Assembly: GCA_019637155.1 (NCBI GenBank)
Contig: JAHBWE010000017.1
Location: 1-64,000, forward strand
Length of the DNA stretch: 64,000 bases
Direction of reading: 5' to 3'
Source of the DNA: Labilithrix sp.
GTDB lineage: Bacteria; Myxococcota_A; Polyangia; Polyangiales; Polyangiaceae
A program made the translations under genes and the position numbers. Under the pieces are notes generated by a model that ran no database searches, was not told the origin of the DNA, and saw nothing but the letters and a program-made list of their open reading frames with translations. Below, piece by piece: positions 49,233 through 53,156 of the stretch; position 1 is the stretch's first letter, and each line of letters opens with the position of its first letter.

Positions 49233-49337
49233 CACCCCGGTCCGCGATCGAATCGGGGGCCAGGTGCGATGCGCGCGAGTCTCCGCGGAGATCGACGAGC
49301 GAGCGCGGGCGGAACGACGGTTGCAGCCTCGCGCGCG

Positions 49338-50150
49338 ATGCGCTCGCTCGGTCCCCTCTGCGCGCTCGCTCTCGCCGCCTGCACCTCCGCCGCCGAGACG
49401 GACGCGCCGCCGGTGCCGGTCGTCGTCCTCACGGACGAGGCGCCGCGCGTCGACGAGGCTGCACCTGCACCTGCGACGGGAGGCGCTCCGGAGGAGGACG
49501 GCGTCGTCCCCAAGCTGTTCGTGCGCGGCTTCGGCGCGGGCGCGCCGGGCTTCGTCGACGGCATGCGCTCGTTCGATACGTACAAGAAGCTCATGATCGC
49601 GGCCGGCTTCGACGGGGAGCGGCACGCGCACGACCTCGGCGACTACGACGACGGCAGCGACCTCGCGGGCATGGTCGGCGAGATCGGCGCGAAGCTCGAG
49701 GGCGTCATGGCGGGCTATCCGGCGACGACGAAGTTCGACGTGCTCGGGCATTCGCTCGGAGGGATCATCGCGCTGCGCGCCGTCCTCGATCGGAAGATGA
49801 CGCCGCGGGTCCGCGCGTTCGTCGCGTTGTCGTCGCCGATCTACGGACAGGACAAGCAGCCATTCAACTGCCGGCTCGGCTTCCGGTGCACCGACGTCTA
49901 CACGACGTACTCGCCGTTCCAGTCCGCGCCGGTGATGGCGTACATGGACGAGCATCGCGCCGAGCTCGCCTCGATCGTGCGCTGCTCCGTCATCTCGCCC
50001 CAGGACGGGACGATCGACACGCCGATGGCGGGCGGACAGTTCCCGGACGGAAAGAACGTCGTCGTCGCGGACGTCTCGCACATGAAGCTGATGAAGAGCG
50101 AGGTCGCCTTCGCCGCGATGAAGGAAGAGTGCTTCGACGGGAAGCTCTGA
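49338..50150 (+). CDS. secreted lipase/esterase (alpha/beta hydrolase) lipoprotein
   Basis: LALAACTS lipobox; GHSLGG nucleophile elbow. Confidence 0.7.
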   Translation: MRSLGPLCALALAACTSAAETDAPPVPVVVLTDEAPRVDEAAPAPATGGAPEEDGVVPKLFVRGFGAGAPGFVDGMRSFDTYKKLMIAAGFDGERHAHDLGDYDDGSDLAGMVGEIGAKLEGVMAGYPATTKFDVLGHSLGGIIALRAVLDRKMTPRVRAFVALSSPIYGQDKQPFNCRLGFRCTDVYTTYSPFQSAPVMAYMDEHRAELASIVRCSVISPQDGTIDTPMAGGQFPDGKNVVVADVSHMKLMKSEVAFAAMKEECFDGKL

Positions 50151-50189
50151 CGCAGCGCGCGGGCCGCAGCCTTGCAATGCGCTCGCGGT

Positions 50190-50582
50190 ATGGATGCGAC
50201 CGATCCGTTCGTTACCCGCCACGGTCTGCGGCCGAAGCGATCGCGCGGCGGAACCTGGCTATTTCTCTTCGGGATCGGCGCGCTCGTCGCGGGGCTCGGC
50301 GTCGCGGGACTCTACTTCGGTCGTCCCGAACGGTGGGACCATCGTGCTGCGCCGAGCGAAGCCGCCACGCCGGCCGCAACGGCGGAGCTGACGTCGGCAG
50401 AGACGGAGACGGAGACGAGGCCGGCGACGCTGACGATCGGCGACGATCCGGCGGCGGAGCCGACCGCCGCGCCACCGCCGCCGCCGGTGAAGCAGCGCCC
50501 TCCGCCGCCACCGAAGAAGCCGCCGCCCCCGCCCGAGCCGACCCCGGAGCCCGAGGCCGATCCGTTCTCCACCGTCCACTGA
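50190..50582 (+). CDS. membrane-anchored proline-rich protein
   Basis: TM WLFLFGIGALVAGLGVAGLYF; PPPPPVKQRPPPPPKKPPPPP. Confidence 0.45.
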   Translation: MDATDPFVTRHGLRPKRSRGGTWLFLFGIGALVAGLGVAGLYFGRPERWDHRAAPSEAATPAATAELTSAETETETRPATLTIGDDPAAEPTAAPPPPPVKQRPPPPPKKPPPPPEPTPEPEADPFSTVH

Positions 50583-50722
50583 CGCCGGCATCTCGTGTGC
50601 ACTGGTGGGAGAATTGTCCACCCTTCCGACACTGGAAGTGTCCGCCCACACCGAAATGTACCTGAAATTTGGGGTGAGGCGTCGTTGTAGGTGTTGGTCC
50701 GACCGTTGCTGATACCCCTGGC

Positions 50723-51544
50723 GTGAACGCCGCCACCTTCCTCCGGGTCGCTGTTGCCTCTCTCCTCGCTGTGCTCGTCGGCTGCGCCGCCGAAGAGGTC
50801 GGGGAGTCGGGGCGCGACGTGAAGTTGCTCACCGGGACCCGCCTCTCGCCGTCGCAGGTCTCGAGCGAGCTCCGCGCCGCCGGCTTCGAGGAGAGCGCGA
50901 TCGGCAAGATGCTCTGCACCGCGAAGTACGAGTCGAGCTACTACGACCGCGCCCTCGACCGCAGCGGCCGCAACGTGAAGCGCGGCCTCTTCCAGATCGC
51001 GAGCAAGTACGTCGGCGAGCTCGACGGCTGCCCGAACAGCACGGAGGAGCTCTACGATCCGGCCCTCAACGCGCAGTGCGCCCGCGCGATCTTCGAGGCC
51101 GAGGGGATCGAGACCTGGTCGAGCTACACGGCGCACAAGTCCGAGTGCGATCGCATGAAGCCGCCGCCGCCGCCGGCCGCGACGCAGCCCGGGACCGACG
51201 TCGTGACGACGCCGGTGTCGATGCCCGAGCCGACCGAGGACGACGTGAACGAAGCGGAGAGCGCGCCGGCGCCCACGCCCGCGCCGAGCACGCCCGATCC
51301 CGCGACGCCCGGCTCGCCGAGCGAGCCCGATCCCGCGACGCCCGCGCCGCCGCCGCCCCCGGCCGCGATCGTCGGCGGCTGCTTCTCGAACACGCTGCAG
51401 GACACGATGGAGCCCGGGGCCTGCGTCGAGTCGAAGTTCGACAAGGTCTGGCAGCAGTGCAAGGACGGCAAGTGGTACCGCGGCGGCGACGACACGAACG
51501 GTCGCTTCGGCCCCTGCAACGGCTCGTTCCCGCTGCCCGAGTGA
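50723..51544 (+). CDS. lipoprotein with C-type lysozyme / alpha-lactalbumin-like (GH22) domain, Pro-rich linker, small Cys-rich C-terminal domain
   Basis: MLCTAKYESSYYDRA (cf. WVCAAKFESNFNTQA incl. catalytic Glu), VKRGLFQIASKY (cf. TDYGILQINSRW; Asp52 replaced), NAQCARAIF (cf. VNCAKKIV); lipobox LVGC. Confidence 0.6.
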   Translation: MNAATFLRVAVASLLAVLVGCAAEEVGESGRDVKLLTGTRLSPSQVSSELRAAGFEESAIGKMLCTAKYESSYYDRALDRSGRNVKRGLFQIASKYVGELDGCPNSTEELYDPALNAQCARAIFEAEGIETWSSYTAHKSECDRMKPPPPPAATQPGTDVVTTPVSMPEPTEDDVNEAESAPAPTPAPSTPDPATPGSPSEPDPATPAPPPPPAAIVGGCFSNTLQDTMEPGACVESKFDKVWQQCKDGKWYRGGDDTNGRFGPCNGSFPLPE

Positions 51545-51545
51545 G

Positions 51546-53156
51546 TCAGGTCATGCTGCCGCGATGGCGCGCGAGGCACGCGTCGCGCGCGCGGACCTGA
51601 TCGGCGAGGAGGGAGCGCGCGTACGCCGCGACCTCCTCCGCGCCGACGAGGAGGCTCCGTCGATGAAGGACCGACGAGAGCGCGCGCGACAGCTCCCGCG
51701 CGGTCGCGTAGCGCGCGGCGGGGTCCTTCGCGAGCGCCTTCATCACGACGCCCTCGAGGTCGCCGGGATAGCCGGCGACGACGGTGCTCGGTCGCGGCGG
51801 CGTGCACTCGAGCACCTGCGAGAGCGTGTCGAGATCGGTCTCGCGGCGGAAGAGGCGGCGCGTCGTGGTGAGCTCCCAGAGGATGACGCCGAGCCCGAAG
51901 ACGTCGGCGCGACGATCGACCCGCTCGCCGCGGACCTGCTCGGGCGACATGTACGGGAGCTTCCCCGCGACCGATCGGCCCGCGCAGCGCGTCCCCTCCA
52001 CCGCGGAGAGCTTCGCGAGCCCGAAGTCGACGACCTTCGTCGCGCCGTCGAACGTCACGAAGACGTTGTGCGGGGTCACGTCACGATGCACGAGCTCGAG
52101 CGGCGCGCCGTCGGGGGACGCGAGCTCGTGCGCGGCGTGGAGGCCCGCCGCGGCGTCGGCGACGATCCGGCAGGCGATCTCCGGCGGCACCGGGCGGCCG
52201 CTCACGCGGACGCTGCGCAGCCACGCGGAGAGCGGCTCGCCGTGGAGGTACTCCATCGCGATCCAGTAGCCGTCGTCTTCCCTTCCGAGCTCGAGGATGC
52301 TCGCGACGTTCGGATGGACGATCGCCGCGGTGAGCCGCGCCTCGTCGAGGAACATCCGCACGAAGTCGTCGTCCTCCTGGAAGTAGGGGTGGAGCTGTTT
52401 GATCGCGGCCCAGCGCTCGAAGCCGCAAGAGCCGGCGAGGCGCGCGAGGTGCACCGTCCCCATGCCGCCGGCGCCGATCTCCTCGAGGAGCCGGTAGCGG
52501 CCGGCGGAGCGCGCGACGGGCGGAGGCATCGCGCCGACGGCGACGAGCTCCGCGTGACGCGCGCGGGAGAAGCTCGGGAGGAACAGGTCGGTCTTCTCGT
52601 CGTCGACGTCGCCGAGCCAGCTCGGTCGCGTCTTCTTGTGCTCCGCCCAGAGCCTCCGCACGCGCGCCACGCGCGGTGAGCTCCCCACCTCCGCCGGCGC
52701 GAGCGCGGCGAACGCGGCGGCGGCCCACGCTTCGTCGACGAGGGCGGCGCTCTCCGGCGTCGCGAGGAGGAGATCGAGGAGGACGAGGACGGAGCGAGCG
52801 GCGCCGCGCTCGTGGGCGCGGCGCGCGACGCGCGCGAGGGCGGCGGCGATGCGGTGGTCGTCGCGGGCGCGAGCGGGGAGCGCGGCGGCGACGACCTCGA
52901 TCGCGGCGGGATCGTCGACGCAGGCGAGGAGCGTCTCGACCGACTCGGCGATCGTGCGCTCCGTCGGCTCGACGTGGGGGAGGAGCGCCGCGACGACCGA
53001 AGCCGCCGCGGCGCGATCGGCCGCGGCCGCGGCTCGTCCTCGCGCCGCGTCGAACGCGGCCCCCAGCGTCGCGGCGGCAAACGTCGCAGGTCGATCTCGC
53101 CAGGCCATGCTCGTAGCACCAGACGGCGGGCCCGTCCGGACCTGACACTTCGCCAC
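51546..53156 (-). CDS. Ser/Thr protein kinase with N-terminal Ala-rich helical domain
   Basis: GAGGMGTVHLA, AIK, HRDVTPHNV, DFG, SPE motifs. Confidence 0.85.
   Translation of the reverse strand: MAKCQVRTGPPSGATSMAWRDRPATFAAATLGAAFDAARGRAAAAADRAAAASVVAALLPHVEPTERTIAESVETLLACVDDPAAIEVVAAALPARARDDHRIAAALARVARRAHERGAARSVLVLLDLLLATPESAALVDEAWAAAAFAALAPAEVGSSPRVARVRRLWAEHKKTRPSWLGDVDDEKTDLFLPSFSRARHAELVAVGAMPPPVARSAGRYRLLEEIGAGGMGTVHLARLAGSCGFERWAAIKQLHPYFQEDDDFVRMFLDEARLTAAIVHPNVASILELGREDDGYWIAMEYLHGEPLSAWLRSVRVSGRPVPPEIACRIVADAAAGLHAAHELASPDGAPLELVHRDVTPHNVFVTFDGATKVVDFGLAKLSAVEGTRCAGRSVAGKLPYMSPEQVRGERVDRRADVFGLGVILWELTTTRRLFRRETDLDTLSQVLECTPPRPSTVVAGYPGDLEGVVMKALAKDPAARYATARELSRALSSVLHRRSLLVGAEEVAAYARSLLADQVRARDACLARHRGSMT

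Follow-up and report, generated by a model that had tools for sequence, protein, structure and literature searches.

A diverged c-type lysozyme-like lipoprotein of Labilithrix sp. with the catalytic glutamate kept and the catalytic aspartate replaced

A lipoprotein gene with a c-type lysozyme-like domain

We analyzed a 64,000-nucleotide stretch of DNA from the soil myxobacterium Labilithrix sp. (contig JAHBWE010000017.1, positions 1 to 64,000, forward strand; hereafter the window), which is ~70% G+C throughout. It contains a gene for a 273-amino-acid (aa) lipoprotein with a domain of the c-type lysozyme kind (glycoside hydrolase family 22, GH22). Compared with hen egg-white lysozyme (HEWL), this domain keeps the catalytic Glu35 and carries a lysine in place of Asp52. 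The open reading frame (ORF) named in an earlier reading of the sequence (the original prediction), 50723–51544 on the + strand, was recovered exactly, and all the elements listed there were present. The product is 100% identical to the NCBI entry "MAG: hypothetical protein KIT84_19920 [Labilithrix sp.]" (P0001; MAG, metagenome-assembled genome). NCBIfam holds no model that matches it, which accounts for the label "hypothetical". The gene has the following features.

50723..51544, +, whole gene for the 273-aa lipoprotein (from the ORF list; GTG start; stop codon included)
50723..50785, +, type II signal peptide ending in the lipobox L18-V19-G20-C21 (read from the sequence; lipidation predicted)
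50774–50785, +, lipobox, with the codon of the putatively lipidated Cys at 50783–50785
50828..51160, +, c-type (GH22-like) lysozyme-fold domain, residues 36–146 (C65/C142 and C103/C119 corresponding to HEWL C30-C115 and C76-C94)
50930..50932, +, codon of Glu70, at the position of the HEWL catalytic general acid Glu35 (E-S motif; HMMER alignments)
50978..50980, +, codon of Lys86, at the position of HEWL catalytic Asp52 (alignments)
51161..51370, +, Pro-rich, low-complexity linker, residues 147–216 (36% Pro, 86% P/T/A/E/D/S)
51371..51541, +, four-Cys beta-finger module, residues 217–273, a candidate cell-wall-targeting module

The N-terminus MNAATFLRVAVASLLAVLVGC ends in the LVGC lipobox (residues 18–21) preceded by VAVASLLAV, which fits the pattern [LVI][ASTVI][GAS]C after a hydrophobic h-region. 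In an alignment of 31 homologues (A1), C21 was invariant and G20 was at least 90% conserved, in line with the lipobox anchor claimed before. The residue at +2 is Ala, not Lys, and under the sorting rules of Myxococcus lipoproteins this would direct the protein to the outer membrane. The Pro-rich linker was found as described, with low confidence in the predicted structure (predicted local distance difference test, pLDDT, 45–58) and a length that differed across the homologues.

The assignment of a GH22-type domain, also made in the original prediction, was borne out by sequence and by predicted fold. The domain matched Pfam PF00062 with 37.3 bits (gathering score 27; E = 3.8e-9) over residues 48–140, corresponding to profile positions 10–114 of 123, and the profile matched 31/31 homologues (best 1.1e-14). 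A phmmer search of the PDB matched only c-type lysozymes and alpha-lactalbumins, of which hoatzin and bovine stomach lysozymes were best (E ~1e-6). This resemblance to PF00062 and the PDB sequences is far above chance. PF18896 (SLT_3) was also passed (30 bits, cut-off 27), with PF00062 out-scoring it in the window protein and in family members, and PF01464 (SLT, GH23) stayed below its cut-off (17.2 vs 21.3 bits). The AlphaFold2 model, built with the 31-sequence alignment, had pLDDT values >90 for residues ~35–148. The top 45 PDB matches of Foldseek were all GH22 lysozymes or alpha-lactalbumins with insect lysozymes leading (1iiz, E = 8.5e-6, template modelling score 0.74 on target length), and the Bdellovibrio protein DslA turned up only at E ~0.03. 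The predicted fold is a c-type lysozyme fold, nearer to GH22 than to other lysozyme-superfamily folds. Neither outcome that the original prediction named as refuting, the lack of a significant PF00062 match and an unrelated predicted fold, was observed.

The pairs C65/C142 and C103/C119 sit in the columns of HEWL Cys30–Cys115 and Cys76–Cys94, which were 98–100% conserved in 185 domains of the rest of the family, and probably form the disulfide bonds C65–C142 and C103–C119. The earlier pairing of the "KSEC" block with RNRC stood in part: C142 shares a column with Cys115 in the family alignment, but lies ~3 residues past Cys115 in the HMMER alignment. Unlike animal c-type lysozymes, the window protein has no Cys at the aligned positions of the vertebrate disulfides Cys6–Cys127 and Cys64–Cys80, its 62–75 loop (HEWL numbering) is shortened, and Trp62/Trp63 are replaced by Tyr96/Val97. 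Trp132 (HEWL Trp108) and the GLFQI strand are kept.

Loss of Asp52 and of its supporting platform

Glu70 aligned on HEWL Glu35 by HMMER, so the claimed conservation of this residue holds. The Glu70 column was invariant in A1, conserved in 96% of the 185 other domains, and retained in 8/8 Asp-less proteins. The replacement of the second acid had been claimed as well. It is true of the window protein, in which Lys86 lies on Asp52 (query NVKRGLFQI vs target SRDYGIFQI, HMMER), but not a trait of the bacterial family, since Asp fills this column in 27/31 close homologues, among them a paralogue from the same genome (P0010), and in 98% of the 185 other domains. The window protein and its two nearest relatives, P0002 and P0003, carry K, K, and T at this position and form a clade with 97% bootstrap support (the K/T clade). 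Five further Asp-less representatives carry H, H, H, F, and Y.

Asp52, Asn46, and Asn59 were described as a hydrogen-bonded polygon in HEWL crystallography (PMC7919404). In the Asp-less proteins, the Asn46 column (92% conserved elsewhere) was altered or deleted, the Gly49 column (84%) was deleted, the Ser50 column (77%) was variable, and the Asn59 column (82%) was A, S, or G. The window protein thus differs from animal c-type lysozymes in lacking both Asp52 and the Asn46/Ser50/Asn59 platform, which is replaced by Ser81 plus a one-residue deletion, Arg83/Asn84, and Ala93.

Across the 185 domains of the rest of the family, fifteen columns reached 90% conservation or more. The K/T clade keeps all the structural ones, namely the four Cys, Gly54, Leu, Gly, Trp108, and Tyr, and also Glu35-Ser36. 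Its losses were Asn46 and Asp52 (3/3 proteins), Gln57 (Met in P0003), and Ala107 (Thr in the window protein). The residues lost are all substrate contacts in HEWL (contact list in PMC5104373). Judged from these alignments, the erosion in the K/T clade is active-site-specific. Asp may have been lost once or several times: all Asp-less proteins cluster in neighbor-joining (NJ) trees, but the bootstrap value is 29% without the platform columns, and the H/F-type proteins occupy a different locus from the K/T clade.

A C-terminal module common to peptidoglycan hydrolases

The small Cys-rich C-terminal domain of the original prediction was recovered with four cysteines (C220, C234, C246, C265) and a confidently predicted fold, with pLDDT values of about 90–94 (~94 over residues 220–270, AlphaFold2). 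The fold and the four-Cys, putatively two-disulfide pattern were compared with the disulfide beta-finger of the fibronectin type I-like and von Willebrand factor type C (vWC)-like kind. A reading of this region as a MYXO-CTERM-type sorting tag was ruled out, as the region folds as a globular beta domain with four Cys and lacks a hydrophobic helix.

A profile of the module retrieved homologous modules, with E-values down to 5e-23, in tandem at the C-terminus of other proteins. Contexts were counted in 80 metagenomic loci with tandem modules: 36 were fusions to a GH25 muramidase, two were fusions to the N-acetylmuramoyl-L-alanine amidase domain Amidase_2 (117.5 bits), 28 carried a ~150-aa domain without family assignment, and 14 were too short to classify. 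In each class (GH25, Amidase_2, unassigned domain), the representative that was examined had a lipobox and a Gly- or Pro-rich linker. Because the module is common to three unrelated peptidoglycan-hydrolase families, it is most simply regarded as a cell-wall-targeting device, a role to which its domain co-occurrence points.

The GH25 proteins are Chalaropsis-type muramidase lipoproteins with two tandem beta-fingers (L040 3056–4249, L043, L044, L046, and ~30 more), and the Amidase_2 proteins L066 and L070 are 626-aa lipoproteins with the same tandem modules. L050 and 27 other loci (L052, L055, L056, etc.) combine the ~150-aa Cys-containing domain GSWYYAASRQRYGCGAHIQIEANGKCVVAETDDYGPDVCV with a poly-Gly linker and two beta-fingers. 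This domain had no sequence match in Pfam, NCBIfam, or the PDB, and its classification as RlpA/DPBB-like was dropped for want of support there; it may be another cell-wall-active domain.

A large bacterial family and its animal relatives

A word-indexed search yielded 31 proteins of 222–292 aa with the same architecture. Scanning one genome per GTDB species gave 39 loci, nearly all from Labilithrix, Polyangiaceae, or "Myxococcales" MAGs, two of them in the culturable Labilithrix luteola DSM 27648 (L001, of the Asp type, and L025, with the lysozyme domain only), with weak outliers in Silvanigrellales and two candidate phyla radiation (CPR) bacteria. An exhaustive profile search of 1.84 billion representatives returned 3,588 sequences at E<=1e-3, 589 at E<=1e-10, and 111 at E<=1e-30. 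In the family, the lysozyme domain is found by itself, joined to the Cys-rich module, or followed by different tails, and the signature C-x-A-x-x-E-S ... D-x-G-L-F-Q-I-N is nearly universal. By this placement, the window gene is a member of a large bacterial family and not an isolated import.

The strongest non-bacterial relatives were giant proteins with 3–9 lysozyme domains and one protist protein (P0099; KAL0205187.1, Eukaryota sp. TZLM1-RC), which is a close relative of the bacterial domain. The giants (P0041, P0053, P0063, P0119, etc.) are 868–2353 aa long, with 3–9 tandem domains, the motif CIAxHES...DHGLFQIS, and 30–73 Cys; they are the animal sequences nearest to the bacterial profile. 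They were identified as dipteran multi-lysozyme proteins because P0053 is a "lysozyme" of Hermetia illucens (black soldier fly). Among bacteria, close relatives were also seen in Silvanigrellales (Bdellovibrionota; L035, L036). Two CPR (Microgenomates) proteins, L038 and L039, are Cys-free, SLT_3-type, and best scored by SLT_3, and have the identical core NGSxDRGLFQINSIH; judging from this core, such proteins may link SLT_3 to GH22 at the sequence level.

With a profile of the myxobacterial domain, silkworm lysozyme scored 68.5 bits over its full length and HEWL 56.7 bits; the SLT_3-like CPR proteins matched over the core only. Identity to animal lysozymes was 29–36% for Asp-containing members and 21–26% for the window protein. 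Of the reference sequences used here (human, bovine alpha-lactalbumin, Bombyx, and HEWL), HEWL alone was verified (166 bits on PF00062). In NJ trees, an animal-like group stood apart from the bacterial groups, and neither was nested in the other. Rooting on the SLT_3-like CPR sequences gave the same animal-like/bacterial-like bipartition without nesting.

The presence of GH22 in Labilithrix had been catalogued, without characterisation, in a 2019 review. Vermassen et al. listed GHF-22 (PF00062) in Labilithrix, Frankia, and Enterococcus, and described the bacterial GHF-22 homologues as "recently identified", with a function that "still await[s] to be investigated" (PMC6403190).

Genomic context and paralogy

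The neighbourhood upstream of the lysozyme gene has four further features.

49269..50150, +, alpha/beta-hydrolase gene with a GHSLGG nucleophile elbow and a lipobox LAAC (Palm_thioest 29.3 bits, PGAP1 24.3 bits)
50172..50582, +, small ORF with one transmembrane segment and a Pro-rich tail, syntenic
50602..50627, +, second conserved intergenic block CTGGTGGGAGAATTGTCCACCCTTCC, a possible activator site, tentative (two-sequence alignment with L124)
50695..50710, +, sigma-54 type -24/-12 element TGGTCCGACCGTTGCT, tentative, 12 nt upstream of the GTG start

The window gene and P0002 share both upstream genes: the alpha/beta-hydrolase shares 84% identity with its counterpart upstream of the P0002 orthologue, and the small ORF, which has no family match, shares 45% with the ORF at the same position. 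The same gene order in a second organism (L124) suggests that the hydrolase gene, the small ORF, and the lysozyme gene may form a three-gene unit.

The window has three occurrences of the sigma-54 pattern where 0.62 would be expected. One is the element before the lysozyme gene, which is conserved in 15/16 bases upstream of the P0002 orthologue; the remaining two lie at 1332 and 55120. We tentatively regard TGGTCCGACCGTTGCT as a sigma-54 promoter element, from which the transcript would be nearly leaderless. A sigma-70-like site was looked for in the 140-bp spacer before the lysozyme gene and none was found. The CTGGTGGGAGAATTGTCCACCCTTCC block lies ~70–90 nt upstream of the sigma-54-like element. 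On the other side, the lysozyme stop (51544) and the end of a convergent Ser/Thr kinase gene (51546–53156, -) are 1 bp apart, which leaves no room for a terminator.

The same MAG (prefix KIT84; GCA_026128965.1) encodes the Asp-containing paralogue P0010 (KIT84_06510), and several lysozyme paralogues per genome were found in the Polyangiales family. P0010 is situated at what we call the canonical locus, in the order Ser/Thr kinase (-), GMC oxidoreductase, lysozyme, metallophosphoesterase. This locus is common to other Asp-type and H/F-type Asp-less proteins, usually accompanied by a sulfatase and a VanY carboxypeptidase, while the window copy and the K/T clade are at a second locus away from it. 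The canonical locus is kept in L003, L123, L125, and the JGI contigs of P0040/P0069, with the VanY D-Ala-D-Ala carboxypeptidase on the (-) strand; in L123, an SH3_3 + DPBB_1 (RlpA-like) gene directly follows the lysozyme gene. No lysozyme inhibitor or immunity gene (MliC/PliC/Ivy) was found among the neighbours in the window or in the related loci.

Evolutionary rates

When the window gene was compared with its orthologues in the K/T clade, nonsynonymous divergence (dN) was 0.04–0.08 for the module, 0.19–0.30 for the lysozyme domain, and ~0.3 for the linker. The ratio of dN in the lysozyme domain to that in the module was 3.7–4.5 in the K/T clade vs 0.5–2.1 in 28 Asp-type pairs. Relative to a neighbouring gene, module dN was 0.39 in the window clade vs 1.0–3.1 in Asp-type loci, a 3–8 times tighter constraint. 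The raw omega (dN/dS) of the lysozyme domain was 0.47–0.68 in the K/T clade vs 0.23–0.54 in Asp-type pairs of equal dN. Strong relaxation on this domain was considered, as raw omega was 2–4 times higher (0.47–0.68 vs 0.10–0.21), and rejected, as the difference was gone after neighbour normalisation; raw omega is misleading here because the synonymous divergence (dS) is compressed by extreme codon bias (GC3 ~0.96). The gene is functional, with the lysozyme domain under purifying selection that is at most modestly relaxed, and the module is its most constrained part.

Proposed function and alternative explanations

We favour the reading that the window protein is a lipid-anchored, wall-directed protein whose cleft would still bind glycan strands without efficient retaining hydrolysis, and give it a probability of roughly 45%. 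This is in essence the "catalytically altered binding module" offered as one alternative in the original prediction. The gene would be a duplicated and diverged copy of a native myxobacterial c-type lysozyme gene, with a product directed at peptidoglycan. After processing by signal peptidase II, the protein would be tethered to the outer membrane or to outer-membrane-derived vesicles; the beta-finger would dock on the cell wall, and the lysozyme cleft would bind glycan strands. With a cationic Lys at the nucleophile/stabiliser position, it would not be an efficient retaining muramidase, and its main role would be that of a wall-binding or very slow-turnover partner. It would probably be expressed together with the upstream alpha/beta-hydrolase lipoprotein and the small membrane protein. 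True lysozyme activity would come from P0010, the Asp-containing copy at the canonical locus. The target may be either the sacculus of the organism itself or, with delivery by vesicles or at the surface, the wall of prey. We favour this reading because the erosion is active-site-specific, a cationic residue occupies the nucleophile position, the sperm protein LYZL4 provides a precedent, and an intact Asp-type paralogue coexists.

Several observations weigh against it. Glu70-Ser71 is retained in all eight Asp-less representatives, and Asp gives way to different residues in different proteins (K, K, T in the K/T clade; H, F, Y elsewhere), so that nothing specific can be assigned to Lys86. HEWL Asp52 mutants retain a few per cent of activity. 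For the Asp52->Glu mutant, the reported activity is <3% (PMC5104373). The dN of the lysozyme domain relative to a neighbouring gene (1.7 vs 1.2–2.6) is family-typical; purifying selection thus continues to act on the domain, as would be expected for an enzyme no less than for a binding protein. Wall binding by the module is suggested by domain co-occurrence, and co-expression with the upstream genes by synteny in two organisms.

Some of the same observations lead to a possible, though less likely, explanation in which the protein is an active glycan-strand-cleaving enzyme that uses Glu70 only, either a substrate-assisted muramidase or a GH22-fold lytic transglycosylase, anchored like the Mlt lipoproteins of Escherichia coli. 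The retention of Glu-Ser, the continuing purifying selection, and the Asp-less positional orthologues at the canonical locus would all agree with it, and GH23 lytic transglycosylases lack a second catalytic residue (PMC7511926). However, a cationic Lys beside the anomeric centre would be expected to destabilise an oxocarbenium-like transition state, further substrate contacts are eroding (Asn59->Ala and Ala107->Thr, with Gln57->Met in P0003), the omega of the lysozyme domain is somewhat higher at equal dN, and LYZL4 shows that a conserved Glu35 need not mean activity. Extended to the Asp-less proteins in general, as single-carboxylate (Glu70) GH22-fold enzymes acting by substrate assistance or as lytic transglycosylases and delivered to the wall by a previously undescribed module, the explanation is doubtful and a little less probable still. 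A conventional, fully active retaining lysozyme, in which the part of Asp52 is played by another acid, such as Asp79 on the first beta-strand, is very improbable. Asp79 aligns with HEWL Asn44 on the neighbouring strand, and other lysozyme types carry the second acid on beta-1 (PMC7511926), but it is not conserved within the K/T clade (N in P0002, G in P0003, Asp elsewhere), the hairpin is shortened and variable, and the Asp-less clade has no compensating acidic column.

Two other explanations concern descent. The protein might be a true member of the SLT_3/GH23-type transglycosylases, its PF00062 match being cross-talk within the lysozyme clan; its SLT_3 score, the 23.7 bits of HEWL itself on SLT_3, and the best scores of the CPR proteins with the shared core on that profile point this way, and we hold it to be about as improbable as a substitute acid, given the out-scoring by PF00062. 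Least probable of all is a recent horizontal acquisition from an animal, e.g., an insect, followed by decay. Among solved structures, insect lysozymes are indeed the best matches in both sequence and fold. However, the gene has a GC of 0.718 and a GC3 of 0.96, equal to its neighbours, and an intact, compositionally native ORF with a highly constrained module; it combines a bacterial lipobox with a bacterial C-terminal module, its identity to animal enzymes is only 21–26%, and it has dozens of diverged homologues in bacteria, where synteny is conserved and a genome carries several paralogues. Recent transfer was rejected on composition, and the "horizontally acquired" factor of the original prediction, as a recent event, gives way to a paralogue within a large, diversified Polyangiales family with conserved synteny.

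Comparison with known systems

The window protein differs from the animal c-type lysozymes (GH22; hen egg-white, human, silkworm) in being a lipoprotein of bacteria and in having, beyond the lysozyme domain, a linker and a C-terminal module. Parallels are the sperm proteins LYZL4 and reptile SLLP1, which likewise have the GH22 fold, keep Glu35, have lost Asp52, and are paralogues beside active lysozymes. Mammalian LYZL4 has Glu35 and an Asp->Gly change, and the rat and mouse proteins have no bacteriolytic activity; snake SLLP1 has Asp52->Ser (PMC5104373). They differ in being secreted animal proteins of fertilisation without lipid anchor or cell-wall module, and their loss of Asp is independent. 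Alpha-lactalbumin, a regulatory subunit of galactosyltransferase, shows the opposite pattern, with Glu35 lost and an acid kept at 52.

Among bacterial enzymes, MltE/EmtA and MltC (GH23, Pfam SLT) are outer-membrane lipoproteins, as the window protein is predicted to be, with a lysozyme-superfamily domain and shared ES and GLxQ motifs; theirs is a single catalytic Glu. Bdellovibrio DslA (Bd0314) differs in its Glu/Glu pair, with the second acid on beta-1, and in its substrate, deacetylated peptidoglycan; it is nearer to GH23 and without a PF00062-type sequence match. The g-type (GH23) lysozymes of Myxococcus, Corallococcus, and other myxobacteria are also an "animal-type" family in predatory myxobacteria, and have been discussed as inter-kingdom transfer (PMC11576321, PMC12855814). 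They differ in belonging to GH23, not GH22, and to Cystobacterineae, not Polyangiales/Labilitrichaceae. We found no literature on c-type lysozymes of myxobacteria; the papers on animal-type enzymes concern the g-type (PMC11576321, PMC12855814).

The presence of the family in Labilithrix is already known. The entry of Vermassen et al. for the same Pfam/InterPro family is a prior record, in the form of an InterPro-derived table row that does not go into catalytic residues, domain architecture, paralogues, or the C-terminal module (PMC6403190). As far as the literature shows, four points are new: how large the family is and how its members are built, the Asp-less lineages in which the whole platform is eroded, the paralogue at a second locus together with its conserved partners, and the C-terminal module common to several kinds of lipoprotein.

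Implications

Hen-type lysozyme is a textbook enzyme that is usually regarded as an animal invention. A large, diversified, and uncharacterised bacterial branch, centred on Polyangiales with outliers in Silvanigrellales and a protist, bears on the origin of animal c-type lysozymes, a question that parallels the one now asked for g-type lysozymes. The window copy is a natural experiment on the long-debated role of Asp52, with the platform gone, Glu35 kept, and purifying selection continuing. The beta-finger common to GH22-like, GH25, and amidase lipoproteins is a candidate new wall-binding module, which would be useful for annotation and lysin engineering. If the favoured, binding-centred reading is true, the practical value would be modest, consisting of better annotation of "hypothetical" myxobacterial lipoproteins and new candidate muramidases. 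If the Asp-less proteins are instead single-carboxylate enzymes, they would provide a natural bridge in mechanism from GH22 to GH23, within a c-type family that is ancient and native to bacteria.

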